Source: an uncultured Armatimonadetes bacterium (GTDB lineage Bacteria; Armatimonadota; UBA5829; DTJY01). Taken from it: a DNA stretch of 64,000 nucleotides. Positions within the stretch are counted from its first letter, which is position 1, and every line of letters starts with the position of its first letter. A program made the translations under genes and the position numbers. Where the stretch lies: NCBI GenBank assembly GCA_963717145.1, contig OY970325.1:4672001-4736000 (forward strand), given 5' to 3'. The notes beneath the pieces are model-generated. The model ran no database searches. It had not been told where the DNA came from and was given only the letters and a program-made list of their open reading frames with translations. Below are positions 42,621 to 58,520 of the stretch, piece after piece.

Positions 42621-42735
42621 ACCGTCAGTCCTGAGTGCGCCGGTGAATGACGGCGTGTAACGAAGGACGGCCTTGATGCACCGAGCCGTCCTTCGTTACA
42701 CGCCGTCATTCACCGGCGCACTCAGGACTAACGGT
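42621..42735. repeat. REP-like family F long palindrome
   Basis: Near-perfect arms of about 50 bp. Confidence 0.9.
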
Positions 42736-42752: not shown

Positions 42753-43880
42753 TCAGCCAAGCAGTCGCACGGCATCGTGGAGCAGCGAATTGCCATCGCA
42801 CCGGTAGCAGTGATTGTCATCTCCCCGGGGGACGCCCGCCCCACGGACGATCTCGGCGGCTTCCAGAATCGTATCTGCATACCATTCAGCGCACGGGGCG
42901 CGATGTCCTTCCAGCTTCGAGCCGGGGTTCGGACTCCACACGAACGGCACGATATTCGCGCCGACATCCGACAGCGCGCGTATCCCCTCGATGAAGGTGC
43001 CTCGCGGCTCCAGCCCCATCACCAGCACGCCGTAGACGTTGCCCGCGCCGAACACCTTGACCGCCCGCCCGATCGCATCGAAGAACGTGTCGTGCGAGAC
43101 GCTCTTTGCCTTCCCGGGACAGATCGCTTTGTAGTAGCCCTCGTCCCAAAGCTCCATGCTGTAACCGATCGCGCCGATTCCCGCATCCCTGTACCGCCGC
43201 ATGTCGTCCTCATCGATGGTCGCGGAGGGGAGAATCGTGCCGGGGATGGTGGTGACCCCGAGGGCGGACCGGATGCTCTCCAGGATGCTTATCACCAGCG
43301 AGACTTCCTTCTCATGGCTGAAGCAGCCCCCTGTCAACAGGATATGCTTGCACATCCCCTCGGCAAATGCCGCCGCGGCCACCTCGCCGATGTCATGGAT
43401 ATCCTTCCTGGTCAGCACCGAGTCGTAGGTCTTCTTCGTGTCAACGAGGTTGCAGAACGCGCATTCCTCTTGTTTGGCGAAATGGGAGCAGTAGTTCTGG
43501 TAGCAGATGAAGAAGCAGTCCTCACCGCCGATCTGGGCGATCTGACGCATGGTCGCGCCGCTCTCGGTCTGCTGATCGTAATACGTGGGCCTCGGGATCA
43601 GGCTCACCCGATCCAATGCCTCACCGTCTCTGGCAACCTGATGATCGGCGGTGATCTTGTAGCGAGACGATGGGTTGTAGCGGAACTGGGTGACCGTCCC
43701 GTCGGAGAGGACGAAATCGTCCGGCAGCTCGGTTCCCTTGTGGTTCACGAAATCCCAGCCGAAGAGACCGTGATTCTGCTCCTTGAACCGCGCCCCGACC
43801 TCATCGAACGCACCCGGCTCGAAGCTGATCCCCTCCACAAGCAGGTCCGCTTTCAGTCTCAGAAGTCTGTGATCCGTCAT
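42753..43880 (-). CDS. Radical SAM protein with CX8CX2C motif
   Basis: YCSHFAKQEECAFC, LTGG, ICPGK, C-terminal CYRC; start MTDHRLL after GGAGG. Confidence 0.8.
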   Translation of the reverse strand: MTDHRLLRLKADLLVEGISFEPGAFDEVGARFKEQNHGLFGWDFVNHKGTELPDDFVLSDGTVTQFRYNPSSRYKITADHQVARDGEALDRVSLIPRPTYYDQQTESGATMRQIAQIGGEDCFFICYQNYCSHFAKQEECAFCNLVDTKKTYDSVLTRKDIHDIGEVAAAAFAEGMCKHILLTGGCFSHEKEVSLVISILESIRSALGVTTIPGTILPSATIDEDDMRRYRDAGIGAIGYSMELWDEGYYKAICPGKAKSVSHDTFFDAIGRAVKVFGAGNVYGVLVMGLEPRGTFIEGIRALSDVGANIVPFVWSPNPGSKLEGHRAPCAEWYADTILEAAEIVRGAGVPRGDDNHCYRCDGNSLLHDAVRLLG

Positions 43881-43999
43881 TTCTTCCTCCGCGACGCTCA
43901 GGCGCTTTCGTGCAGCGTATAACGAAATATACCGCACGAAGGGCCGGAGTGTCAATGCCAGGGAATCCAGGTAAGAGTTCACGATCAAGGATAGTCGGG

Positions 44000-44090
44000 T
44001 GTCATTCTGAGCGCAGCGTATGTCATTCTGAACGCAGTGAAGAATCTGTTTGCGCACGGCCAGATTCTTCACTGCGTTCAGAATGACATA
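44000..44090. repeat. REP-like family G (TGTCATTCTGAACGCAGTGAAGAATCT and inverse)
   Basis: Three units here and three more at 58092-58187. Confidence 0.85.
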
Positions 44091-44160
44091 CGCGCAGCGC
44101 AGCTATCAGCGATCGTGAACTCTCACGAATACGGATTCCGCGTCGAATACCAATATTCCG

Positions 44161-44400
44161 GCCGGAGACATCCTCCAATCGCCCGGGGGAAAGATCTTCC
44201 AGCCCGGAAGCAAGTTGTCAATCCCCCGCAACAATCTCTTCCCGCCCGGAAGCAAGTTGTCAATCCCCCGCAACAATCTCTTCCCGCCCGGAAGCAAGTT
44301 GTCAATCCCCCGCAACAATGTCTTCCCGCCCGGAGACATCTTCCTGATCCCCCGCAGCAATCTCTTCCCGCCCGGAAACAACTTCCTTCCGCCCGGAAAA
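44161..44400 (+). repeat. 42-bp tandem repeat array
   Basis: TCTTCCCGCCCGGAAGCAAGTTGTCAATCCCCCGCAACAATC, three near-exact units plus degenerate flanking units. Confidence 0.9.
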
Positions 44401-44790
44401 CCGGGACGGAGAGCCGGGAAAGGCACAGTTACTACAGAATGGTCACACTCGGGCCGCAGTCCTGTCATAGAGAGTGTTCTCCGGCAGCAGAGGTCCCAAA
44501 AGAAGGAATAGAGGTATAGGCATCGAATGAGGAAGCATGCCGAGAACCGCTCGATCAGTGCTGGAGGGCATTCCCTATCACGTCACCCAGAGGGGCAACC
44601 GCAGAGGGGAACGCACGAGGGTCGGGTTTCCCTGCGGGGATGAGGCGTTTGTGGGAAGGATCTCAAACCTGTTTGGGAGGGAGCTTATCCTTCGTCGAGG
44701 CGGTCGCCCGAGGAAAATCCATGACGGCGGGTAGACGTAATCGTGAACCAATCGTAAATACCGCGCCTGTCCCTGGTTTCTCTGGTTTCC
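44395..44790 (+). mobile_element. Non-autonomous RAYT/Y1 HUH element with internally deleted transposase ORF (44537-44734)
   Basis: MPRTARSVLEGIPYHVTQRGNRR joined directly to a C-terminal G.P.GDEAF...GR......GRPRK; HUH core absent; bounded by GGGAAAGGCACAG ... CGCGCCTGTCCC. Confidence 0.72.
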
Positions 44791-45405: not shown

Positions 45406-45477
45406 CCATGACGACAGGTGGACGTAATCGTGAACAAATCGTAAACACTGTGCCTGTCCCTGGTTTCCCTGGTTTCC
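45406..45477 (+). repeat. 72-bp direct repeat of 44719-44790
   Basis: 64/72 identical by my alignment. Confidence 0.9.
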
Positions 45478-45804: not shown

Positions 45805-48553
45805 TCACTTCAGACGTTGTAGAAAACTCTGAGCCGTCTTGACAAGCGGTTCGTCCAGATCCAGTTCATCAGCTACCGACTTCGCATCGGCTGATAGGAA
45901 AGCCTCCACGGTCATATATGCATCGGTGATTGCCTCAATCACATTCTGAGCGAGTCCGCTGTTTGCTAGCAAAATTGCCGATAGGAATCGCTTGCCACCC
46001 TTCAGACCAGACAACTGCGCGTTCTTCTGAATCTCATTCCTAAGATGACTAGCAAGTTTACTCACATCGGTGGCGGAGTCAACAAGGGGATACTCGATGT
46101 AGATCCAACCTTGGAGATCGCTTGGCACAGGCTTTCCCTTCCTCACACGAAGCAATGCTGAAGGCCGCTCTGGAAGCATCCTCAGCATGCCCACCTCCAT
46201 CATAACGTTCGCGTTCTGATCAGAGATCTCCGCCAGGTAGCAATGGGCATTCTTGATGTGGTCCATCACATTTCCGGACACTGTGGGATCATGTGTTAGA
46301 TCGCGCGCTGTGATCACCTGCCAATAATAGGGAGGCGACTGAAGCGCAGCGCGCACCGCCTCAAGGAAAGGGTCATACTTATCGTCGAACGGATACGCCA
46401 GAAAGCATGTCACGTGGTCAGAAAGCTCGGGCTGGGCCAACTTGCAGCGCAGTTCCGTCATCTCATGATCGAACGCCATCTGAGCCTTCTTGAACTCAGC
46501 TTGGAAGGCGTCCAGTTCACGCGCTACTCTCGCAGCCTTTTCTTCCTGCTGTTTGGCGTATTGCCGGAGTTCCTCTAGAGCGTCATCATGCTCCAGTTTC
46601 CGCCGGGTCAGTTCAGCCTCGACCTCCAGGAGACTCTGATGCTTCGCCATCAGTTGCTCAATAGCCATATTGGTACCGCGGAACATGACCTGCGCGTTCT
46701 CAGGTGTCACTGAGTGAGATTCGAATAGCACAGCGTTGTTGTAGAGGACAGTCATCGCCAGGTTGCGGACGGGATACCTCCCTGTCGGATGCGGCAAGTA
46801 GCTGGATTATGGGATTAGACGCGTTCAAATGAAGAACCGTCCCGCCGGTCAGCGAACCCTTGCGGTAGCGATCTCGTTCCTGCAGAAGTTGCGTGAAGAA
46901 CTTCCTTAGCTCCGGATTGACGTCTGTATCCTCAGCCAGCTTGCGGACTGTGTTCTCGTGTTCGGCATCTTCCTCAACCTGCAGCAGGATTGCGGGGATA
47001 TCAGTCGGCCGAAACTTTACCACTCGAGCAGCCATATTCCTGAGCGCAAAATCCTCTTCAAGCTTCGACCATCGGCCGTCCACATCGTCCACTGGTTCAA
47101 AGATATAGCCGGCGGCGGCATCCAGCTTCTTCACATCCACGTCCTCATGGCGCTCGTCATATTTCTCGAGAAACGCCTGTTCAGCTCCATAGCTTGCATC
47201 GATCACGCATAGTCCGGCTTCACGGAACAGAATCTTCTGCTGCGTTCCACTGCCAACGTCGCTGAAGTAATGAATGGTCTTGCGAGGTGTCTCCCCTTCC
47301 GCCGGCGTCTCACCGGCCTCAGTGCTCGCCAGAGCCTTGGGGTCAGACCCAACAAAGCGCTGGAGGTACGCGGGAATGTTCATCTTTCCATACTCGGTGT
47401 CCACAAGCACCAGATCACAGATCTTGTCGAAGAAGCTGTCGTCCTCCAGTGACCACGCCTTTATCAATGTGTTGTGGCTCGTCACAACCTCCCGCAGTTG
47501 CTGAGGATCGTCCGATGCAAGTCGGTCCAGATGCTTCAGGATTGACTGGGCCACCACCTCGCGCACGCGGTGGTATTTTTCGTCCTTTCGGACGCTCTCG
47601 CGAGACAGGGTCGGAGTAAGGGAAGAGCTATCCACTATTCCACGCACGAACTTCGCCCACACTGGGAGCAACTCCTGATCTCCGTTGCAGATAAACATCC
47701 GCGAGATATAGATGTCCAGGTCCCCATATTCCTTGATGGATACCATTGCATGGCGAGGAATGTAGAGTACCCCGTGAACAGAAAGGTCGCCTTCCTCGTA
47801 TTCCAGTGGAATGACTTCGAGCGGTGGTGTATCTTGGTACCGGTTTTTCACGTATTCCAAGTACTCCGATCTAGTCGCGTGCCGGTGCCACGGGGCATCC
47901 ATCACGTTCACAGGGAGCTTCGCCTGATTGAGGTAGATCGGCAACGACAGGAAGTCTGCATAGGTCTTGACTACCTTTGTGAGCACTTCCTCGTTGAGCA
48001 TGGTCGCCACATGATCCGGCGATACCGTGATGATGACTTCCGTGCCGACATCCTTCTTGTCGGCTTCCGCAAGTGTGTAGGTAACATTGCCGTCGCATTC
48101 CCAGCAGTATCCTCGCGATTCTGGCTGATATGACCGGGTAAGAATCTGTATCTTCTCCGCTATGATAAACGCCGAGAGCAGGCCGAGCCCGAACTGACCG
48201 ATCAGCTTCTCAGCGATGTCGCGATTCTTCTCGGAAAGCGCCTTCCTCAGCTCGGCCGTGTATCCTTTCCCTACAGTGGACAGAAACTCGTGGATCTCTG
48301 ACTCCGTCATCCCAGAGCCATTGTCACGGAAGGTTAGGGTCCGCGCATACGCATTTGCCTCGATGCCGATGCGTGGGTTCTTGAAGCTCTTGTCTTCTGC
48401 CATCCGACGCAGGCACGAGTCATGAGCGTTCTGGATCATCTCCCGCACGGAGACCTCCGGCTCCGAGTATAGTGTCTCGCCCAGGATTTTAATCAGTCCC
48501 GGGAGGTGAATCTGGATTTCATGCTCCTTTGCAGCCGTGTGCTCGGTTGTCAT
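45805..48553 (-). CDS. Hsp90/HtpG-like ATPase fused to coiled coil, NDT/TIR-like domain and HhH-like tail; one +1 frameshift near 46775
   Basis: REMIQNAHD, DNGSGM, IGQFGLG, GT, LSRE; the tail aligns across the shift with the paralog's C-terminus; then CFLAYPF...LAEISDQNANVMMEVG...VPSDLQGWIYIEY. Confidence 0.82.
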
Positions 48554-48584
48554 GCTGTTTCCTCCTATCCTAACGCCTCATCCC

Positions 48585-50048
48585 TCAGATCATAGTGGCA
48601 ATCGTTTCCACCAATTCCTGTATGGCCGATGGAAATCGCATCTGCCGTAGATGGCTGATCACCCATCGAATATCCTCCAGGCCGGGCCCCGCACGAGATG
48701 GCTCTTGCACAATCAGATCGCGAAGCTGCTCCAGGCTACGCTGAAGACAGTCTTCCGCTGGACTTGAGACACCATCGGCACGCGGAGATGACTCGTCAAG
48801 CTGCGAGTACTGCCTAGCAGCCAAACGAAGTAGTTCGTGCAGGAAGGTATCCCGATTCTCCAAGCAAGATCCGTCACTCAGCATGTTAGCTATCGCCGTG
48901 ATCACCACCAGCAGAAGCTGGCTCCTATTGGGCTCAACAAGTATAGATGCAATCACATCTGTCGCCTCCAGCCGATTGCTGGACGACAACTTCGTGAGAA
49001 ACCTGCGCCACAACCACAGCCTGGCGCTAGTCGCCTCTACACCATGCTTATCGAGTAAGTCATCTAGCAGGAATATGCTTCCCGACTTGAGCAAGACCTC
49101 GACGTCTTCGGTGTTGATGATAGTCACAACCTGTTCTTCGGATACCGACTGGCCCAGCTTCTCGGCTCGAAGCAATGAGAGGAGATTACCTACGTGCGTC
49201 CTGTCCCACTTGCCATTGGTATACCTGGCTACCCCATCTGCGCGAGTGAGAATCTCCTCAGCACTTGAGAGGTGTTCATTGGTGTGAAGACCCTGTCCGC
49301 CGTGCCGATTGCGCACAACGCTCTTCAGGATGAACTCACCGTAGCTGACACAACACTCAAAGAGGCAGGAGAAATACTCTCCTGTTATCGTCTGATTCGC
49401 GATATTGGTTATCTCCTTATGCAGCGCTTGACTATCGAAGCCCAGAACCCCCATTGCACCCTCGCTGCTGCGACCGTCAGGTAAACCAGGTGGCAGCAAG
49501 AGCGCAATGCTTGCGCTGAGCATGTGCTGTAGCTCGGTCACCGGCCAAAGCGCCAGATCGTGGAGCATATGACTGTCAGCGCATTCCCTCAGCACCTGCG
49601 CAGCAAGCACCACCTCGTCCAAGCGATCACCAGCGTCAAGAGACCACAGCTTAGCTTGTAGCAGCCCCCACTCCTGCGACCCAAGCGGCGGCGGGCCAAA
49701 GCGCGCAATGTTGGCGGCAACACCCGCATTCCGTTCTATCTCCCGCCACGCTCCGTGCAGACATCTGATCGCGTCATCTTCGTTCCCCGCCACTCGAAAC
49801 AGCCGACCAGTGAGCAACGGTATACGCACGGCAGCGTCATGACTGCCCATTACTACTTGCGGAGCGTTATTCATGTAGAAATCGATACTGACAGCAACGT
49901 GTCTGGCGACCCGCCGTTCAAGACGAGACTGTTTCGCAGGAACCATTCGTGCCAGGTAAACGAGTCCTTCCCGCTTCTTTCTGGGATCCGGTGAGAGCAG
50001 GTTCCGGACAGCAGCGGCAACGCTGCGATCAAGATCAACTCCGTTCAT
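48585..50048 (-). CDS. Hypothetical, probably alpha-helical, protein in the Hsp90-SIR2 operon
   Basis: GGAGGT RBS, start MNGVDLDR overlapping the SIR2 gene end; Leu/Ala/Glu/Arg-rich; no motif recognised. Confidence 0.7.
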   Translation of the reverse strand: MNGVDLDRSVAAAVRNLLSPDPRKKREGLVYLARMVPAKQSRLERRVARHVAVSIDFYMNNAPQVVMGSHDAAVRIPLLTGRLFRVAGNEDDAIRCLHGAWREIERNAGVAANIARFGPPPLGSQEWGLLQAKLWSLDAGDRLDEVVLAAQVLRECADSHMLHDLALWPVTELQHMLSASIALLLPPGLPDGRSSEGAMGVLGFDSQALHKEITNIANQTITGEYFSCLFECCVSYGEFILKSVVRNRHGGQGLHTNEHLSSAEEILTRADGVARYTNGKWDRTHVGNLLSLLRAEKLGQSVSEEQVVTIINTEDVEVLLKSGSIFLLDDLLDKHGVEATSARLWLWRRFLTKLSSSNRLEATDVIASILVEPNRSQLLLVVITAIANMLSDGSCLENRDTFLHELLRLAARQYSQLDESSPRADGVSSPAEDCLQRSLEQLRDLIVQEPSRAGPGLEDIRWVISHLRQMRFPSAIQELVETIATMI

Positions 50049-51306
50049 CCCAGTACCTCCACACCTGATCATAGGACGGCTCCCAACTCGGGCGGTCACC
50101 TACAGCGTCCGAGCGAGTCATATGGTCGAGCAGGCCCCGCCGCACCCCAGATGAGAACGTCAGACACGGTCCTCGCAGTCCATACACATGACACAGCATT
50201 CCATTGTGCAGCCACTTGCTTAGTCGCTGCTGCTTCTCCGCCTTACCGTCGCCCTCCTCGCGCCCTAGGACAAACTCGGCGTCGAACTCTCCTTTGAGAA
50301 CAGCAGCGAATACAGCAACTGGGAACGAGCCATCTTGTTTCCTCAGCCAATAATCGTGAAGGTCTCTTCGCAGGTCGGCCGCATCAGGAATGATCTGCTG
50401 GCTAAGAAGCTCGCGCTTCAGCTGCTCTAGGAAGCCCTGGATATCGTGTGCGTATATGTCGACCCCGCGTTCCTCCCAAAAACTCTGATCCACAGGATCA
50501 GGATCATTCATTATGGCCCAGGACGGCGGCATGTTGTCCTCTTGCCTGGCTTCCTGGAGGATACGCTGGAAGTTCAGGTCCCTCATGCTGTAGCCCAGTA
50601 TCAACAGAGGTCGCGTGGCAAACCAGAGTCTGAGTTGGCACGCGATCAGCGGTCGATTCCTAAAAAAGACGGCGTACTGCGAGGTACTTAGTACGTAGTC
50701 GTCCAGGAGTTCCGCCCTATCGATCGAGGTGGGGACTCGTATTCTTCTCTGAATCGCGTTCAAGCAGCCGTGCATCTTGACGATCTGTGTGCGGTCTACC
50801 TGCCCTTGGTCATTCGGAGGCTGGGAAAGATCGCTATCGCCGGCAATGCACCAGGGCCACAGTAGCGTTGCATCGTAGATTGCAGTTTCGAGCAGTGTGT
50901 CATAATTTGTCGTCGCAATAGCTCGGAAAGGTATTTCTGCAATGAGTGAGTGGATCTCACCATATCCCGCTCTTAGCCCTGTTGCCGCACCGATGTGGAG
51001 CCTGTTTAGTACGTCGTCATCGAGATGGGCTTCAAAGGCACGCAAAAAAGCACGATTCAGCCTGCCGGGCCCGTGGTGTCTATCAACGCGGCGGAGTCGT
51101 TCCGCTGTCCTGTGAAGATCTTCGTTGCCTCTGGCTGCAAGCTCAGCCTGCGCTCCATCATGCTTTCTGATCTCGTCTATCAGTGTCTTGCGCAGTTCCT
51201 CCGTACTTGGTGCACACCCACTGGAGATACCGGCCCCCACCAGCAACACACACCTTCCCGACAGGATGCTCTCGGCTATCAGGTCCACAGGAATGGTACC
51301 GGGCAC
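50035..51306 (-). CDS. SIR2-like (SIR2_2) domain protein, putative NADase effector
   Basis: LLVGAGIS, IATTNYDTLLE, IVKMHGCL, DYVLS..QY, LILGYSMRDLNF. Confidence 0.9.
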   Translation of the reverse strand: MPGTIPVDLIAESILSGRCVLLVGAGISSGCAPSTEELRKTLIDEIRKHDGAQAELAARGNEDLHRTAERLRRVDRHHGPGRLNRAFLRAFEAHLDDDVLNRLHIGAATGLRAGYGEIHSLIAEIPFRAIATTNYDTLLETAIYDATLLWPWCIAGDSDLSQPPNDQGQVDRTQIVKMHGCLNAIQRRIRVPTSIDRAELLDDYVLSTSQYAVFFRNRPLIACQLRLWFATRPLLILGYSMRDLNFQRILQEARQEDNMPPSWAIMNDPDPVDQSFWEERGVDIYAHDIQGFLEQLKRELLSQQIIPDAADLRRDLHDYWLRKQDGSFPVAVFAAVLKGEFDAEFVLGREEGDGKAEKQQRLSKWLHNGMLCHVYGLRGPCLTFSSGVRRGLLDHMTRSDAVGDRPSWEPSYDQVWRYWDERS

Positions 51307-51307
51307 G

Positions 51308-53224
51308 TCAATCCCTCCGCTGTCTCAAGAACCAAGATCTTAGTCCCCGTCCGGTCTGCCTTGTATCCTCGGCTAGGCTTGCGGACAGCCGCAGCAACAT
51401 TGCCACGGTCTGCGTATGCATCTCGGCCATCTTCTCGACCTCCTGAATGGAAAGACCCTTGGTGGCGACCAGATAGGCCGAGTTATAGACTTCCTTCATG
51501 CATTGCAGACCGACCTCATCGCTCTCTTCCAAGACTGACAATAGCCGTATCACTTCGTTTCCGGAATTGAGATACAGCGTCCAGCCGGACCCCTTCTGCC
51601 CCATCCGTCCGCTGAGTGCAGCCTCGAACAACTCTCGGAGCAGATCGGGGATGTCGGGATCGTCACCGAGTTCCTCTAATAACCGGCCAGCCGCAGGCCT
51701 ATCGCTACGCACCAGCAGGGATGGGATAGAGACCGGTTTGAAGCTCACTGCTTTGGCCACTATGTCCATGTCGGCATAACGCCCGATCAAGGCCTCCAGG
51801 GTGCCCGGGGGGACTGAGTCAAAGAGAGCATCCGCAGCCTCATCGATCATCTTTGCCCGCAGTCCGCGCTCTCCTTCGGCATACTTCTCGATGAACGCCC
51901 GATCGATCTTCTCCTCAGCGTCAATCACAGGAACCCCATTCGCCGCAAAGAGGAGCTGATGCTGTCGGCTTTCGACCCCGCCGGAATGGAAGTAGATCGT
52001 CTTCTCACCCCTCGGGACGCGTCTTGAAGCTCGTTCGAGATAGACAGGAATAGTGGTCTTTCCGGAGTCGGAGTCGAACTGCACATGGTTCTTCACCATG
52101 CCAAAGAAATGATCATCCTCCAACGCACCCATTTTCACGGCAAGCTCATGTGCCCTGAGAATCGCATTGAATCGCGATGGCTCAGATATGGCCAGTTCGG
52201 TGATGAAACCGGCAAGTCGCTCTCCGATCAGCGCTTGGGCTCTCTGGAATCTCGTGTTGCGGACCACGCTCTCACGGCTGGTCGTAACGTCCAGTTCGGA
52301 TGTTTCGATCACGCCTCCTACGAATCTGGCCCAATCCGGCAGCAGTTCGCGCTCTTTTCCTATATACATCCTGGAGACGTAGAGTTCCAAAGCCGGGGGT
52401 TCCCCGGTTCCAGATTGCGGGATGAAGAGAGCGCCGCCTATATCGAAGCCATCCGCTCTCCTATCCAGAGGAATGACCTCCATCGGCGGCTGGTGGAAAC
52501 GATTGGCAATGTAGTCGGCGCACTCCATGGTCGATCCCCTGCTGTACCATGGAGCTGTCTGAGCGTTCACGGGCAAAGGCTTGTCACCGATGTAGATCGG
52601 GAATTCGATGAAGTCGGCATAACGCCGTACCAACTCGATGACGTGATCCGGGCTCGTGAATCCGTCGGTTGTGCTCTTCACATCAAGGATGATTGTGCTG
52701 CCGATCGGAAGGCCTGGGGTCTTCTGCAGAGTGTATTCTGCGCCGCCATCACATCTCCATGTGAAACCTGTGCTATCACCTCTGAAAGATCGTGTGCGGA
52801 TCTCGACAGACTCTGCTATCACGAAGGCGGAGAGTAGGCCCATGCCGAAGCGCCCAATCAGCCGCCGTGCCTCCTCCCGATTCTCCTGTTCCAACACCTT
52901 ACGGAACTCAGCCGTTCCACTTCTGCCTACAGTCGACAAGTAGTCCATGATCTCGGCCTCGGTCATACCTGCGCCGTTATCTCGGATCACGAGAAGATCA
53001 TTGCCCGTATCACACTCGATGCCTATGCGCAAGTCCTGTGGACAACTCGGATCAGTCAACTGCCGGTTGACAAGTGAATCGTTGGCATTCTGGATCAACT
53101 CACGGATGGCGACGGATCTGTCGGAATAGAGGTGTTGTCCGAGGGTCTTGATGATCCCGGGCAGGTAGATGCCTATCTGGCTGCGTTTGACACCTTCCTC
53201 AGACGATGGATCCAGTGAAGACAT
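51308..53224 (-). CDS. Hsp90/HtpG-like ATPase
   Basis: LYSDRSVAIRELIQNAND, DNGAGM, IGRFGMG, LYVSRMYI...LLPDWARFV.G, TSRE; AGGAGGA RBS. Confidence 0.9.
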   Translation of the reverse strand: MSSLDPSSEEGVKRSQIGIYLPGIIKTLGQHLYSDRSVAIRELIQNANDSLVNRQLTDPSCPQDLRIGIECDTGNDLLVIRDNGAGMTEAEIMDYLSTVGRSGTAEFRKVLEQENREEARRLIGRFGMGLLSAFVIAESVEIRTRSFRGDSTGFTWRCDGGAEYTLQKTPGLPIGSTIILDVKSTTDGFTSPDHVIELVRRYADFIEFPIYIGDKPLPVNAQTAPWYSRGSTMECADYIANRFHQPPMEVIPLDRRADGFDIGGALFIPQSGTGEPPALELYVSRMYIGKERELLPDWARFVGGVIETSELDVTTSRESVVRNTRFQRAQALIGERLAGFITELAISEPSRFNAILRAHELAVKMGALEDDHFFGMVKNHVQFDSDSGKTTIPVYLERASRRVPRGEKTIYFHSGGVESRQHQLLFAANGVPVIDAEEKIDRAFIEKYAEGERGLRAKMIDEAADALFDSVPPGTLEALIGRYADMDIVAKAVSFKPVSIPSLLVRSDRPAAGRLLEELGDDPDIPDLLRELFEAALSGRMGQKGSGWTLYLNSGNEVIRLLSVLEESDEVGLQCMKEVYNSAYLVATKGLSIQEVEKMAEMHTQTVAMLLRLSASLAEDTRQTGRGLRSWFLRQRRD

Positions 53225-53400
53225 CGCTGTTCCTCCTGGTGAGTTAGTATGCTCAGTGCAACAGTTCAAGGCAGAGCGTAGGACACCTAGTGGTTGCGAT
53301 GGTCATTAGCTCTACTCTAACGATGACCGTAGTATGAAGATGCCACCGCCTACCCGTCGATATAGTATACCACGGCATAACTGGTTGCGCAAGTCCCCGA

Positions 53401-54867
53401 GTAACAGTTCACGCTTGGGGATAACGAGTTTGATCAGGCAGGGAAGAGGACAGACTTGCCTGCGAGCAGTTGCCTGCATGATTCGAGCATGTCCAGACCC
53501 CTGACGTGCCATGTGCCAAACAGACTCATGAGCGTCATCTTTGTCTCGGAACCCTTCGCGCTTCGTGTGCCTCCGCATACCTTGCGGGCGATCACACACG
53601 GCCTCAGCGCTCGTTCTGCGCCATTGTTGTCCGACGGTACTTCCGGGTACTCTACGAACATGAACAACTCGTGCAAGCGATCTATGAATCTCTTTGCCAG
53701 CGTCTGCTGTGGAGCATCTGAGCCGACATACGGACCTGAGAGCGCCTCTACCTCTTCCTCGAAGAGTACTCGCTTCCACTTGCGAACCTCCGCCTTCTTG
53801 CTCCGGAACTCCTTTGCCCGATCGTAAACACCCTTCACCGCATCCGCCCATGCGATGACGCCCGTGTCGTCCGCGTTCCTCTCCTTCAGTTTGTGCAGAT
53901 CCCTGGCCAGATGTGCCCAGCATATCTGGCGGTCTGCAACTACCGGGTTGTATCCGGCATAGCAATCCGTTACCACTACCCCTTCGTAGTCGCCGCCTAT
54001 CGTTTCCTTCGGGATCTCTCCACTCCGACTCCGCCGGTAGATGAAGTATCGCACGTTCTTAGTGGAGAAGGTCCAGATGTATCCGTTCAGCCCATCCTCT
54101 CTCCAGCCCGTCTCGTCTGCGTTTATGTATGGGCTTCCACGTACAAGCGAGAGTAGCCGCTCTTTCTCTTTTTTGCCACAGTCTGCCACCGTGTGCAATA
54201 TCTCGCTTATCTCTCCCACAGAGAGCTGAAGACCATACAGAGCCTTCAGCAATCCCTGTATCGTCCGCTTTGTCATGCGACCTACCGTCGAAAGATACGA
54301 TATCAGGCTCATCAGGTTCACGCCTACCCGATGCTTGCCTACAACCTGGCCGGAAAGGTCAACCTTCGGCACATGACTCTTGCCACAGTATCCGCATCTT
54401 CTGGCGATGAACCTGTGCTCGACTACGTCCACAGGCACGATGGGGATGTCGATGACTTGGCGGAGTCTCTTTACCGTGCCCCCTGTGAGCGCTCGGCCGC
54501 AGTCCGGACACTTCGAGTGCGCGTGCTCGACTACACGGGTGGGTGTCTCCCGCCTGCGCACGAACGACTTCTTGCGCTTCTTTCGTTCAGCTGCCCGGCG
54601 CTCTTTGCGGTTCGGCTTCACCCAGTCAGGCACGGATGGGGAACTGCCATCACCGCCGGAAAGCCTGGCGCGAAGGTCTTCGTTCTCCTTCTCCAGGTCG
54701 CCGATACGCGCCACGAGTTGGGGAACTAGACCTTCCAACTGGCTGACCCTGGCCTCAAGCTCCTCGTATGTCGGCTTGGATTGCTCGCTCACACTCCTTG
54801 GTTCGAGACGCTCCCAGCAGGTTCCTTCTTCTTACAGACAAAATAATCCCTAAGCCTGAACTGTTAC
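53401..54867 (-). mobile_element. IS66-family element (single-ORF type), copy 1
   Basis: IRs GTAACAGTTCACGCTTGGGGA / GTAACAGTTCAGGCTTAGGGA; 1467 bp. Confidence 0.93.
53434..54792 (-). CDS. IS66 family transposase
   Basis: Leucine zipper, CPDCG zinc finger, ADETGW, TDCY, QICWAHLAR, DNNGAERALR. Confidence 0.95.
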   Translation of the reverse strand: MSEQSKPTYEELEARVSQLEGLVPQLVARIGDLEKENEDLRARLSGGDGSSPSVPDWVKPNRKERRAAERKKRKKSFVRRRETPTRVVEHAHSKCPDCGRALTGGTVKRLRQVIDIPIVPVDVVEHRFIARRCGYCGKSHVPKVDLSGQVVGKHRVGVNLMSLISYLSTVGRMTKRTIQGLLKALYGLQLSVGEISEILHTVADCGKKEKERLLSLVRGSPYINADETGWREDGLNGYIWTFSTKNVRYFIYRRSRSGEIPKETIGGDYEGVVVTDCYAGYNPVVADRQICWAHLARDLHKLKERNADDTGVIAWADAVKGVYDRAKEFRSKKAEVRKWKRVLFEEEVEALSGPYVGSDAPQQTLAKRFIDRLHELFMFVEYPEVPSDNNGAERALRPCVIARKVCGGTRSAKGSETKMTLMSLFGTWHVRGLDMLESCRQLLAGKSVLFPA

Positions 54868-54875
54868 CCCTGAAA

Positions 54876-56342
54876 GTAACAGTTCACGCTTGGGGATAAC
54901 GAGTTTGATCAGGCAGGGAAGAGGACAGACTTGCCTGCGAGCAGTTGCCTGCATGATTCGAGCATGTCCAGACCCCTGACGTGCCATGTGCCAAACAGAC
55001 TCATGAGCGTCATCTTTGTCTCGGAACCCTTCGCGCTTCGTGTGCCTCCGCATACCTTGCGGGCGATCACACACGGCCTCAGCGCTCGTTCTGCGCCATT
55101 GTTGTCCGACGGTACTTCCGGGTACTCTACGAACATGAACAACTCGTGCAAGCGATCTATGAATCTCTTTGCCAGCGTCTGCTGTGGAGCATCTGAGCCG
55201 ACATACGGACCTGAGAGCGCCTCTACCTCTTCCTCGAAGAGTACTCGCTTCCACTTGCGAACCTCCGCCTTCTTGCTCCGGAACTCCTTTGCCCGATCGT
55301 AAACACCCTTCACCGCATCCGCCCATGCGATGACGCCCGTGTCGTCCGCGTTCCTCTCCTTCAGTTTGTGCAGATCCCTGGCCAGATGTGCCCAGCATAT
55401 CTGGCGGTCTGCAACTACCGGGTTGTATCCGGCATAGCAATCCGTTACCACTACCCCTTCGTAGTCGCCGCCTATCGTTTCCTTCGGGATCTCTCCACTC
55501 CGACTCCGCCGGTAGATGAAGTATCGCACGTTCTTAGTGGAGAAGGTCCAGATGTATCCGTTCAGCCCATCCTCTCTCCAGCCCGTCTCGTCTGCGTTTA
55601 TGTATGGGCTTCCACGTACAAGCGAGAGTAGCCGCTCTTTCTCTTTTTTGCCACAGTCTGCCACCGTGTGCAATATCTCGCTTATCTCTCCCACAGAGAG
55701 CTGAAGACCATACAGAGCCTTCAGCAATCCCTGTATCGTCCGCTTTGTCATGCGACCTACCGTCGAAAGATACGATATCAGGCTCATCAGGTTCACGCCT
55801 ACCCGATGCTTGCCTACAACCTGGCCGGAAAGGTCAACCTTCGGCACATGACTCTTGCCACAGTATCCGCATCTTCTGGCGATGAACCTGTGCTCGACTA
55901 CGTCCACAGGCACGATGGGGATGTCGATGACTTGGCGGAGTCTCTTTACCGTGCCCCCTGTGAGCGCTCGGCCGCAGTCCGGACACTTCGAGTGCGCGTG
56001 CTCGACTACACGGGTGGGTGTCTCCCGCCTGCGCACGAACGACTTCTTGCGCTTCTTTCGTTCAGCTGCCCGGCGCTCTTTGCGGTTCGGCTTCACCCAG
56101 TCAGGCACGGATGGGGAACTGCCATCACCGCCGGAAAGCCTGGCGCGAAGGTCTTCGTTCTCCTTCTCCAGGTCGCCGATACGCGCCACGAGTTGGGGAA
56201 CTAGACCTTCCAACTGGCTGACCCTGGCCTCAAGCTCCTCGTATGTCGGCTTGGATTGCTCGCTCACACTCCTTGGTTCGAGACGCTCCCAGCAGGTTCC
56301 TTCTTCTTACAGACAAAATAATCCCTAAGCCTGAACTGTTAC
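54876..56342 (-). mobile_element. IS66-family element, copy 2 (tandem)
   Basis: Same IRs and length as copy 1; identical translated ORF. Confidence 0.93.
54909..56267 (-). CDS. IS66 family transposase
   Basis: Translation identical to 53434-54792. Confidence 0.95.
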   Translation of the reverse strand: MSEQSKPTYEELEARVSQLEGLVPQLVARIGDLEKENEDLRARLSGGDGSSPSVPDWVKPNRKERRAAERKKRKKSFVRRRETPTRVVEHAHSKCPDCGRALTGGTVKRLRQVIDIPIVPVDVVEHRFIARRCGYCGKSHVPKVDLSGQVVGKHRVGVNLMSLISYLSTVGRMTKRTIQGLLKALYGLQLSVGEISEILHTVADCGKKEKERLLSLVRGSPYINADETGWREDGLNGYIWTFSTKNVRYFIYRRSRSGEIPKETIGGDYEGVVVTDCYAGYNPVVADRQICWAHLARDLHKLKERNADDTGVIAWADAVKGVYDRAKEFRSKKAEVRKWKRVLFEEEVEALSGPYVGSDAPQQTLAKRFIDRLHELFMFVEYPEVPSDNNGAERALRPCVIARKVCGGTRSAKGSETKMTLMSLFGTWHVRGLDMLESCRQLLAGKSVLFPA

Positions 56343-56350
56343 GTCCCCGA

Positions 56351-57707
56351 ATTGCTTCACGAACGATGTTACCGAAACGGAAACGTTGCCTCAGATAAGA
56401 ATGTTACCGAAACTGAGGCATGGAGAAGATGACAACTGCATCCGTAAGAGAAGTCGTGAGGCGCAAACGCAAAGAATATGGCAAAGCCACCAAATCGGAG
56501 AAGAAGCTGGTATTGAGTGAAGTCCAGGGATTGACCGGTTACCACAGGAAGTCGCTGGTGAGGCTGTTCGCGAAAGGAGTTCCACCAGCGAGGAGTCCAG
56601 TGAGACGCGCAAGGAAGTCGAAATACGAGCCGATAGCCCACAAGCTGAAGACACTCTGGGCTGCGAGTTTCTACGCGTGCGGTAAGCGTCTGCAGCCGTT
56701 TCTGACTGAGTTTCTACCCATACTGGAGTCATTCGGGGAGATAACGGTTACACCAGAAGAAGAGAGGCTGCTTAACTCGATCAGCGCGTCGAGCATCGAC
56801 AGGTTGATGAAGAAGGAGCGGTCTGCCCTATCGCTAACAGGGAGGACCTTAACAAAGCCGGGGACACTGCTTCGGTCTCAGATCCCGGTGAGGACGTTTG
56901 CCGACTGGGATGAAGCTGAGCCTGGGTTCTTCGAGATGGACTTGGTGGGTCATTGCGGAGGTGACGGGAGCGGAGAGTTCCTGTATACTTTGACTATGAC
57001 TGATGTAGCGACCGGATGGGTAGCGCTTGATGGAATGAAAGGCCGAGGGGAGCACGGAACCGTGCTTGCGGTGCAGTCCGCGTCCAAGAGCGCACCGTTT
57101 GCAGTCAGAGGCATAGATACCGACAACGGCGGCGAGTTCATCAACCATCACATGAACAAGTACTGTCGAGCGCACAGGATCACGTTTACGCGCAGTCGGC
57201 CTTACAAGAAGAACGATCAATGTCATGTAGAGCAGAAGAACTGGAGCGTAGTCCGGCAGTTTATAGGTTACCGGCGATTCGAGACGGACGAGCAGCTTGC
57301 GGTACTAAAGGCGATATATCCGCTGATCGTGGCGTATCACAACTTCTGTCAGCCCATGATGCGTCTTAAAGAAAAGGAGCGGATTGGGAGTAAAGTGATC
57401 AAACGCTATGAGCCTGCGATGACGCCGTACCGCAAGCTGATAAGTGTTGAAGGATGGCTTGACGATGAAGCAAAGGATCGCCTCGATAAAGAACGTAGAG
57501 CGACGAACCCGGTGGAGCTACTAAGACGCATCCACAGGCTATCATCAAAGCTTGACAGGATGCCGAATAAAGACAGATCGAAAGCGAGCAAGGCGCGGCC
57601 CTGAGCGGCGATCAAGAGCCGATCTGACATACTTGAACACACTACTTGGTAACATTATCAATGACGCAACGAATGGCGTTTCGGTAACAAAGCTAAATGA
57701 GGCAACA
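56351..57707 (+). mobile_element. IS with rve/DDE transposase (ISNCY-like) and doubled subterminal repeats
   Basis: Each end carries two copies of TTGCYTCA-N7-TGTTACC(GAAAC), inverted relative to the other end; exact termini uncertain. Confidence 0.72.
56420..57604 (+). CDS. Integrase-core (rve) DDE transposase
   Basis: TGYHRK, TKPGTLL, FEMDLVGHCG, DTDNGGEFIN, RSRPYKKNDQCHVEQKN. Confidence 0.9.
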   Translation: MEKMTTASVREVVRRKRKEYGKATKSEKKLVLSEVQGLTGYHRKSLVRLFAKGVPPARSPVRRARKSKYEPIAHKLKTLWAASFYACGKRLQPFLTEFLPILESFGEITVTPEEERLLNSISASSIDRLMKKERSALSLTGRTLTKPGTLLRSQIPVRTFADWDEAEPGFFEMDLVGHCGGDGSGEFLYTLTMTDVATGWVALDGMKGRGEHGTVLAVQSASKSAPFAVRGIDTDNGGEFINHHMNKYCRAHRITFTRSRPYKKNDQCHVEQKNWSVVRQFIGYRRFETDEQLAVLKAIYPLIVAYHNFCQPMMRLKEKERIGSKVIKRYEPAMTPYRKLISVEGWLDDEAKDRLDKERRATNPVELLRRIHRLSSKLDRMPNKDRSKASKARP

Positions 57708-58091
57708 CGGTCCCGCCGACAACGTGCCATGCTGAGAGCCATGGTGGACGAGGGGTCGGCGCTGGGAGGAAGAAACTGGGGACAAGGGACTCGGGATAGG
57801 CACAATAACTCAGGAGCGACGACAACTGTGCAGGTGACGCAAGTCATGCCACTGCTTATCCTCCGTGCGCATCGTTCATACCGGCGGTTCGAGCTTGGGA
57901 GGCTCGAGGGCGGGGGCTTTCTTCGTTGTCTTGCCGGCGGTGACGAGTGCGTCCGCCAGGCCGTAGATGTAGGCCAGGAAGAAGACGACTCCCGTCACCA
58001 GTACCGCCGGGCTCGTGACGTAGACGAACATCCGGAGCGTATTGACATTCCTCGGGTACGGCGGCTGCAGGAAGGCCCAACTCAGCAGGGC

Positions 58092-58187
58092 CAGATTCTT
58101 CACTTCGCTCAGAATGACAGACGGTCAGATTCTTCACTTCGCTCAGAATGGCAGACGGCCAGATTCTTCACTGCGTTCAGAATGACA
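58092..58187. repeat. REP-like family G, three tandem units
   Basis: CAGATTCTTCACTKCGYTCAGAATGRCA x3. Confidence 0.85.
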
Positions 58188-58320
58188 CCCGCTGCACTTG
58201 ATTGTGAACTCTTACAGTCTCCATTCTGCATTCCCCCTCCCCGATTCTGAGTTCGACTTGGATGGTTGCCTCTGTTATAATACCTGTAACAGCGCAGGGT
58301 GGGGTGACCCGAGAGAGGAA

Positions 58321-58520
58321 CCGTCAGTCCTGAGTGCGCCTCTGGGCGTGTATCGAAGGACGGCCTTGTGCCACGAGCCGTCCTTCGATACACGCCCAGA
58401 GGCGCACTGAGGACTGACGGTCGAGGTGGGAGTGAACACCAGGACTGACGGTCGAGGTTGGAGCGAATACTCAGGGCTGACGGTCGAGGCTGGAGTGAAC
58501 AGCCAGGGCTGTCGGTTCGG
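58321..58520. repeat. REP-like family F variant followed by ~31-bp tandem repeats of its end
   Basis: Palindrome 58321-58420, then AGGRCTGACGGTCGAGG..GGAGYGAA x3. Confidence 0.8.

Follow-up and report, generated by a model that had tools for sequence, protein, structure and literature searches.

Gene content and setting of the operon

The stretch analysed here (the window, 64,000 nucleotides of contig OY970325.1 from an uncultured Armatimonadetes bacterium) carries a minus-strand operon of four tightly packed genes, which encode an Hsp90-like protein (Hsp90-A), a SIR2_2-domain protein, an orphan protein (X) and a second Hsp90-like protein (Hsp90-B) that is continued, across a frameshift, by a coiled coil and a domain resembling both TIR domains and nucleoside 2-deoxyribosyltransferases (NDT). 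The spacings given for these genes in an initial annotation made from the sequence alone (a 1-nt gap, a 14-nt overlap and a 31-nt gap) were confirmed by the open reading frame (ORF) coordinates, and they suggest that the genes are co-translated as one operon. As the same annotation had stated, the operon lies in DNA of lower GC content (0.52-0.58 over ~43.5-58 kb, against 0.60-0.66 on the flanks and 0.60 for the window overall) beside three insertion sequence (IS) copies, two of the IS66 family and one IS481/IS3-like. Among 60 relatives drawn from its family, class or phylum, none gave a full-length match to Hsp90-B and five gave GHKL-level matches only (E>=1e-7); the SIR2 gene was likewise missing from all 60. 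Because the relatives have no full-length homologue of these genes, and because the island is lower in GC and flanked by IS and REP-like elements, the operon has been horizontally acquired. It follows from the same count that the lineage lives without Hsp90 and that the island brought the Hsp90 genes in; within the organism's own genome, the matches to the Pfam HSP90 family (PF00183) are these two genes only.

Both proteins match PF00183 (55.3 bits for Hsp90-A and 67.4 bits for Hsp90-B, cut-off 24.4), Hsp90-A matches HATPase_c_3 as well, and the two are 37% identical over ~590 residues. TRAP1 is aligned by residues 25-587 of Hsp90-A with an E-value of 7e-43. Hsp90-A (E42/N46, DNGAGM at 82, GRFGMG at 124, R317) and Hsp90-B (E38/N42, DNGSGM at 77, GQFGLG at 119, R318) each retain the catalytic Glu and the Asn that binds Mg, the DNGxGM and GxFGxG motifs and the SRE Arg of the middle domain; across 42 and 12 family members these positions are invariant columns. 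The fold-level features of the Hsp90 superfamily, namely the GHKL motifs, the catalytic Arg and the C-terminal dimerisation domain, are therefore found in both, with the last C-domain helix of Hsp90-B lying beyond the frameshift.

Hsp90-A and Hsp90-B scored 267.6 and 294 bits, respectively, against the NCBIfam HtpG equivalog NF003555, both under its cut-off of 371. The best-scoring model for both was NF010683, 'HSP90 family protein' (299 and 310 bits versus a cut-off of 455), which is by these scores the nearest named group but not one to which they belong, and the PRK14083 cut-off was not reached either. A tree of 192 rows, with its root on canonical HtpG, puts the two proteins in a 172-row clade that is set apart by a branch of 0.96 with a support of 100, and a 43-row IQ-TREE tree gave the same topology with a separate non-HtpG clade. 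Within this clade, Hsp90-A is a fast-evolving, long-branch lineage grouped with P0003 and P0004, its closest relatives (61% identity). As judged from sequence, neither of the window Hsp90s is a housekeeping HtpG.

An intact 908-aa relative of Hsp90-B, P0005, was mapped onto the window by tblastn. Its residues 11-601, the Hsp90 part, correspond to 48523-46781 in one frame with 70% identity, while residues 604-893, the effector part, correspond to 46773-46036 in another frame with 33% identity. Since P0005 spans both, Hsp90-B and the 330-aa ORF that follows it (ORF5) are one gene with a frame change within ~8 nt. A sequencing error could account for the frameshift, which sits on a short run of C/G in an assembly of one contig.

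The AF2 model of the C-terminal piece, built with 16 relatives, reached a pLDDT of 88.3. It starts with the final helix of the Hsp90 C-domain and goes on with a coiled-coil helix of 88 residues, an alpha/beta domain (ORF5 residues 125-267) and a helical tail (residues 274-329). When the alpha/beta domain was compared with ~48,000 solved chains using VIA-align, which is independent of Foldseek, it matched the TIR domains of IL-1RAcPb (Z 13.6), MyD88 (12.7), SfSTING (12.6), SARM1 (11.4) and ThsB (10.6), as well as nucleoside 2-deoxyribosyltransferases and MilB (13.2 for NDT 7o62, 12.6, and 12.2 for MilB). Foldseek returned the same TIR/NDT mixture with weak E-values. As modelled, the domain appears to match the TIR and NDT folds equally, so that the sub-families are not separable. 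PF10137, the TIR family of CAP12/Pycsar, gave 21.1 bits (E=3.3e-4, positions 73-117 of 119), under its cut-off of 24.7, and several full-length relatives carry a precomputed PF10137 match. E201 and G203 are nearly invariant in 17 sequences; the Glu lies within an 'NVMxELG' motif, and we take it to be the equivalent of the TIR/NDT catalytic Glu. Compared with CAP12/Pycsar TIR proteins, ThsB, MilB and NDT, the domain thus shares the flavodoxin-like fold (Z 10.6-13.6) and the conserved Glu, but differs from these effectors in being joined to Hsp90 via the 88-residue helix and in its sub-threshold PF10137 score.

The SIR2 protein scored 84.9 bits against SIR2_2 (PF13289, cut-off 24.5), which places it in this family with a predicted enzymatic activity. 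In a search of PDB sequences, its GAGIS motif at 24, TTN134YD and H179 aligned with KomC (E 1.1e-5) and DSR2 (3.7e-5), and the protein, as aligned, keeps the N and H at the catalytic positions of these defence NADases. DSR2 is a protein of ~1000 aa with an N-terminal SIR2 and a helical sensor; its equivalog model gave 18.3 bits against a cut-off of 1400, so that by this score the protein is not a DSR2. Its C-terminal ~135 residues had no match: neither a SLOG nor a Macro sensor was found in residues 285-423, for which the ESM Atlas returned sub-threshold resemblance to other SIR2_2 proteins only. The likeness to ThsA (Thoeris), DSR2 and KomC (Kongming) therefore lies in the SIR2_2 domain, the GAGxS motif and the aligned N and H, whereas the window protein has no detected SLOG and is at most 29% identical to any SIR2 relative.

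Its best PADLOC match was ThsA (4.8e-12). Thoeris pairs ThsA, which has a SIR2 (or Macro) effector and a SLOG-type signal sensor, with the TIR protein ThsB, and the TIR-type fold at the C-terminus of Hsp90-B, with ThsB among its matches, would suit a similar relay, in which the TIR-like domain makes an NAD-derived nucleotide and the SIR2 protein is a downstream NADase switched via its C-terminal region, while Hsp90-A and X are accessory. However, the ThsA match covers the SIR2 part only (positions 92-231 of 478), the sensor expected in residues 285-423 was not found, the TIR-like domain fits the NDT and MilB N-glycosidase folds just as well, and relatives carry the Hsp90-TIR-like fusion without a SIR2 gene (0 in 160 related loci). 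We consider such a relay unlikely.

Protein X had no match in Pfam, NCBIfam or PADLOC, and a comparison with PDB sequences, DSR2 included, returned two chance-level matches only at E<=10. It looks like a real gene, because its GC content by codon position (GC1/GC2/GC3 of 0.64/0.43/0.60) follows the pattern of the neighbouring genes. A single-sequence AF2 model consisted of ~23 helices at a pLDDT of 43.5, too low for a fold search, and the best ESM Atlas value was 0.88, under the lead threshold of 0.9, indicating low recognition.

The structural claims of the initial annotation were mostly borne out. That both Hsp90s span the whole fold and keep the GHKL motifs and the SRE Arg agrees with the Pfam matches, the TRAP1 alignment and the motif positions; that the SIR2 protein keeps its TTNYD and HG residues agrees with the alignment of N134 and H179 to KomC and DSR2; and the continuation of Hsp90-B into a coiled coil and an NDT/TIR-like domain across the frameshift is upheld by the P0005 mapping, the AF2 model and the fold search. 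Clustering with housekeeping HtpG, which the annotation had named as evidence against a defence role, was not seen, given the long branch, the sub-cut-off HtpG scores and the lack of a full-length homologue in all 60 relatives.

Table 1. Features of the operon and of the adjoining mobile elements (window coordinates)
Feature	Coordinates	Strand	Remarks
Hsp90-A	51308-53224	-	638 aa from ATG (= P0002); TTG-extended ORF reaches 53269; effector domain absent
SIR2_2-domain protein	50035-51306	-	423 aa; predicted NAD+-consuming effector; C-terminal ~135 aa uncharacterised
X	48585-50048	-	Orphan, 487 aa (= P0001), predicted all-alpha
Hsp90-B ORF	46700-48553	-	617 aa; Hsp90-like ATPase module up to the frameshift, 46781-48553
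Frameshift (+1 frame change)	46773-46781	-	Between the end of the Hsp90-B C-terminal domain and the coiled-coil/effector extension
Hsp90-B C-terminal extension	45805-46773	-	End of C-domain, 88-residue helix, TIR/NDT-fold domain, helical tail
330-aa ORF (ORF5)	45805-46797	-	Overlaps the 3' end of Hsp90-B in another frame
IS66-family tandem, two identical copies	53400-56349	-	Directly upstream of Hsp90-A
IS66 transposases	53434-54792 and 54909-56267	-	DDE_Tnp_IS66, 3.8e-37 each
Third IS, rve-integrase (IS481/IS3-like)	56385-57706	+	Gene 56420-57604; PF00665; 29-nt inverted repeats (I7) at the bounds

Among the mobile elements, the two IS66 copies form a direct repeat (D1) of 100% identity with a period of 1475 nt, and each carries a 452-aa DDE transposase only. 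Because they start ~130-175 nt upstream of the Hsp90-A start, the native promoter region of the operon may be displaced. The integrase of the third IS scored below the cut-off of NF033577 (IS481). Two types of REP-like palindromes, with arms of 42-51 nt that are 90-98% complementary, are located at both ends of the ~14-kb island (42621-42735 and 44007-44102; 58085-58198 and 58320-58421), and the island may have been inserted or recombined at these borders.

A minus-strand gene (42753-44072), which lies at the edge of the low-GC DNA and 1.7 kb downstream of the operon, encodes a 'variant radical SAM' protein (NF045502, 352.7 bits). Between this gene and the operon lie at least five tandem 42-nt units (44153-44404, 84-nt copies spaced 42 nt), and a 72-nt direct repeat of 89% identity is present at 44719-44790 and 45406-45477. 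A cyclase-HSP90-radical SAM neighbourhood (PAACC-HSP90-radical SAM) is mentioned in a 2026 preprint (bioRxiv 10.64898/2026.10.19.760177) and was considered here as a possible parallel because of the radical SAM gene.

Relatives of the window Hsp90s and their partners

Relatives were gathered in two sets. The genome set was obtained by pattern scans of species-representative genomes and comprises the best 80 of at least 539 relatives among 600 matched stretches, and the metagenome set was obtained by a scan centred on Hsp90-B and comprises 80 further loci. ORFs were called per locus and same-strand genes were chained at gaps of <=200 nt; five loci per set, in which no Hsp90 ORF could be called, were discarded, which left 75 genome and 75 metagenome loci. 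The clade occurs in Chloroflexota, Planctomycetota, Abditibacteriota, Cyanobacteria, Actinomycetes, Myxococcota, Competibacteraceae and others, and this patchy distribution points to gene transfer.

The sole recurrent operon partner of the Hsp90-like gene is a TPR protein of ~350-400 or ~720-790 aa, which is frequently present as two or three copies in tandem. Its gene lies in the operon chain at 42 of the 75 genome loci (contig ends cut a further 10) and at 36 of the 75 metagenome loci, while no family recurs across unrelated loci among the remaining 136 operon members. The C-terminal TIR-like extension of the window type is carried by 16/75 genome loci and 29/75 metagenome loci. Two or three tandem TPR paralogues follow the Hsp90-like gene in L023, L113, L012, L017, L035, L050 and L082, which suggests diversification of the presumed sensor.

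The window resembles this clade in that both of its Hsp90s fall inside it and keep the ATPase motifs, and in that Hsp90-B has the coiled-coil and TIR-like extension, albeit interrupted by the frameshift. It departs from the clade in that the operon has no TPR partner and in that X and the SIR2 gene stand between the two Hsp90 genes. Four profiles of the TPR-partner family found no such protein in a six-frame translation of the whole 64 kb at E<=1. X occupies the operon position where relatives encode the TPR partner. Profile comparison did not link it to that family: hhalign probabilities against the four TPR-partner profiles were 0.12-0.77 for X, no better than the 0.24-0.59 of the reversed X.

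Among the loci examined, the closest relative of Hsp90-B is the metagenomic locus L084 (47% identity). There, at L084:1583-7515, a protein combining an effector-associated domain (EAD1) with a trypsin peptidase is followed by an 899-aa Hsp90 with an N-terminal EAD1-like domain (phmmer 4.6e-13) and a C-terminal TIR-like extension, and then by a 707-aa TPR protein. The presence of the same EAD on a core component and on a separate effector is a coupling principle of conflict systems, as set out by Kaur et al. (2020, eLife 9:e52696), and L084 shows in clean form how an EAD is coupled to an Hsp90 core.

Other relatives show further features of this kind. TIR_2 proteins adjoin tandem Hsp90 pairs in L007 and L086, and the L041 operon includes a trypsin-like peptidase ORF that also matches the C-terminal piece of the window. 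On a mobilizable Pseudanabaena plasmid (L164, NZ_AP017561.1, 10908-28599), a TIR protein is encoded back to back with an 877-aa Hsp90-like gene, behind which come one hypothetical and one TPR gene; this group has an N-6 DNA methylase and a 1417-aa DEAD/DEAH helicase on one side, and VWA and AAA ATPase genes on the other. A Xanthomonas plasmid carries a plain Hsp90-like gene paired with a 774-aa TPR gene. In Nonomuraea (L059:6395-12565), a 2056-aa ORF has a very long N-terminal region ahead of the Hsp90-like module and the TIR-like extension.

Ten of the 75 metagenome loci and two of the 75 genome loci carry a plain Hsp90-like gene and an effector-fused one as a tandem pair, which makes ~5 lineages after near-duplicates were merged (L034/L126, Herpetosiphon-type; L007/L085-L090, Thermoflexus-type; L091; L095). 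In the 43-row tree, a clade of 11 rows (support 100) unites the upstream members of these pairs and a clade of 7 rows (support 100) the downstream ones, which indicates an old, co-inherited pair. The window resembles them in having one plain and one TIR-like-extended Hsp90, and TIR or TPR genes occur nearby in some pair loci. In contrast, the paired genes elsewhere are directly adjacent with nothing between them and have no SIR2 gene, and Hsp90-A and Hsp90-B are outside both pair clades. They fall instead within a 21-row clade (support 97), in which Hsp90-B is grouped with P0005, L084 and single-Hsp90 loci. Because Hsp90-A and Hsp90-B are excluded from the pair clades, the window pair represents a second, independent origin of the plain-plus-effector layout. 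We take this recurrent origin, as read from the tree, as the best available argument that the asymmetry of the Hsp90s matters; on their physical pairing it carries no information.

A proposed Hsp90-centred conflict module and its rivals

The domain identities, the intact catalytic motifs, the non-HtpG clade, the acquisition by transfer and the family-level associations are directly supported by these data. We consider it somewhat probable that the acquired locus is a conflict (anti-invader) module centred on Hsp90. It would be the one known variant of its kind in an uncharacterised family whose divergent Hsp90-like ATPase takes the role played by the NTPase in STAND/NLR systems. In functional terms it would, with the same guarded preference, be an NAD-depleting system with an Hsp90 switch, possibly inactivated here, for which we infer binding, activation, substrate and a defence phenotype.

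The Hsp90-like proteins would dimerise via their C-domains, and plain Hsp90-A and Hsp90-B may in this way form an asymmetric pair, the heterodimer put forward in the initial annotation, with one TIR/NDT-like domain on a coiled-coil stalk. The sensor of an invader protein or of a disturbed cell state would be a helical partner (a TPR protein in relatives and perhaps X in the window) or else the surface by which Hsp90 binds clients, and ATP-driven closure or re-pairing of the Hsp90 clamp would relay the signal through the C-domain and the long helix. TIR-like domains might then be brought together and/or the SIR2 enzyme released as a second, NAD+-degrading effector, and the destruction of NAD+ or nucleotides would lead to growth arrest of the infected cell. 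A bolder form of this proposal, which we regard as possible but doubtful, is that the dimeric Hsp90 clamp is a true bacterial immune switch analogous to NLR/STAND proteins, reading invader proteins as 'clients' either directly or via partners of the TPR or X type. Hsp90-A would hold Hsp90-B in an asymmetric dimer that keeps the single TIR-like domain inactive until a trigger arrives, this pairing would have evolved at least twice, and the SIR2 enzyme would be governed by it as well in the window.

A number of observations weigh against the conflict-module reading. None of the 160 related loci gave a match to the window SIR2 or to X; the Hsp90-SIR2-X-Hsp90 linkage that the initial annotation proposed to look for was found nowhere else, and the four-gene arrangement is unique to the window. 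As SIR2 and X lack counterparts in related loci, conservation cannot support them as part of one system; it supports the Hsp90/TIR-like core, not the four-gene unit. Only three homologues of the SIR2 protein, all distant (23-29% identity), were found in a large protein collection, and X retrieved only itself in a word-indexed search of 5.8 billion proteins and in a full HMMER search of 1.84 billion representatives; a TPR or other repeat signature was not detected in X. EADs had no match in the window proteins at E<=10 and no segment was common to the five products, though divergent adaptors could be missed by such searches. Of the 75 genome loci, 23 show no TPR partner although no contig end cuts them, and promoter and terminator scans at the operon gave results at or below shuffle expectation.

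The frameshift adds to this, since the module may be crippled in the window, and with Hsp90-B frameshifted and IS elements abutting the operon, the locus may be decaying. It is thus conceivable, if rather unlikely in our judgement, that the locus is a non-functional remnant whose four genes do not cooperate, left when a duplicated Hsp90-effector gene received, within it or beside it, IS elements and a cassette of SIR2 and the helical protein. The three IS copies directly upstream, the restriction of SIR2 and X to this locus, whereas nothing lies between tandem Hsp90 genes elsewhere, and the lack of a promoter-like site above chance would fit such a mosaic. On the other hand, the other reading frames are long and intact with coding-type GC periodicity, the catalytic motifs are kept in all three enzyme types, the gene spacings suggest co-translation, and the lone frameshift could, as said above, be a sequencing error.

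The surroundings of the related loci were sampled as 125 of 154 flanking genes from 40 non-redundant loci that have a tandem pair or the extension. Two was the highest count of any Pfam family, and housekeeping genes (such as PEPCK and PGK) were numerous. PADLOC models at 1e-10 matched 30 scattered families with one or two members each, including TIR, dGTPase, patatin-like and 2TM effectors as well as generic regulators. These flanks, for which there is no baseline, give no clear defence-island signal, which does not imply its absence, and the predicted defence-island enrichment was accordingly not recovered.

An Hsp90 and a TPR protein make up the classical pairing of chaperone and co-chaperone, and the pairs in this clade could be ordinary ones. 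Together with the largely housekeeping flanks and the lack of any other Hsp90 in the genome, this would suit a dedicated proteostasis role, the two Hsp90s being the working chaperones of an HtpG-less organism and SIR2 and X their clients or regulators (e.g. a deacylase). We regard this as very improbable: none of the 60 relatives has a full-length Hsp90 homologue, the genes lie in a lower-GC, IS-flanked island, the structurally solved SIR2_2 relatives are defence NADases, and the fused TIR/NDT-like domain, the EAD1-trypsin coupling and the adjacent TIR proteins are not features of chaperones. The defence role first proposed for the locus is therefore retained in part: the wider clade speaks for it with its fused TIR-like domains, TPR partners, EAD1-trypsin pair and TIR_2 neighbours, but the linkage and the island signal do not.

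Relation to known systems and significance

The initial annotation recognised no named system at the locus, and PADLOC 2.0.0 indeed has no model for the window proteins beyond a GHKL-level likeness to Tiamat and a restriction enzyme. The underlying idea, however, is not new. According to one sentence in a 2026 preprint (Li, Burroughs & Aravind 2026, bioRxiv 10.64898/2026.10.19.760177), an HSP90- or HSP70-like NTPase may replace the STAND NTPase in 'tripartite' effector-sensor systems, which is described as 'previously shown'; this weakens the novelty of our reading of the window. The main texts of Kaur 2020 and Kaur 2021 (eLife 10:e70394), papers whose supplements may list Hsp90 architectures, do not contain 'Hsp90', and neither does a 2025 preprint on TIR systems. 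A full-text literature search found no paper joining Hsp90, SIR2 and anti-phage, or HSP90 and 'effector-associated domain', and HtpG was absent from the papers listed by a full-text search on 'defense island', 'TIR domain' and bacteriophage.

Close parallels in organisation are the STAND/NLR and EAD-coupled 'ternary' systems (Kaur 2020, 2021), which likewise combine an NTPase switch, a repeat-type sensor and variable effectors, occur in similar taxa (Chloroflexota, Cyanobacteria, Actinomycetes, Myxococcota and Planctomycetota) and share EAD1 coupling with the relative L084. Unlike them, the window has a dimeric GHKL/Hsp90 clamp as its NTPase instead of an AAA+/STAND ring-former, and no EAD was found in its proteins. 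Tiamat (TmtA) and other GHKL defence ATPases share the GHKL ATP-binding domain, but the similarity covers ~100 positions only of the TmtA models (1063-1782 positions, E 1.8e-7 to 1e-3; E 1e-6 to 1e-7 for models of 1300-1650 positions), whereas the window proteins have Hsp90 middle and C-domains.

The locus is a new variant of a predicted, experimentally uncharacterised kind of chaperone-centred module. As a singleton with a frameshift it is of limited value by itself, yet it adds a second, independent plain-plus-effector pair and indicates that the core may be combined with a SIR2 enzyme. The clade is broad (at least 539 relatives), is found on plasmids and is absent from PADLOC 2.0.0, and might therefore represent a new class of systems. 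A link between Hsp90 and immune receptors is known in eukaryotes; if the bolder form of our proposal is true, prokaryotes would have a form of this link too, with Hsp90 itself serving as scaffold of the receptor. If the module works as proposed, Hsp90 would join the STAND, AP-GTPase, MoxR and ParA NTPases as a switch of abortive-infection effectors. Its mechanics would differ from theirs, since an ATP-driven dimeric clamp would take the place of a ring or filament.

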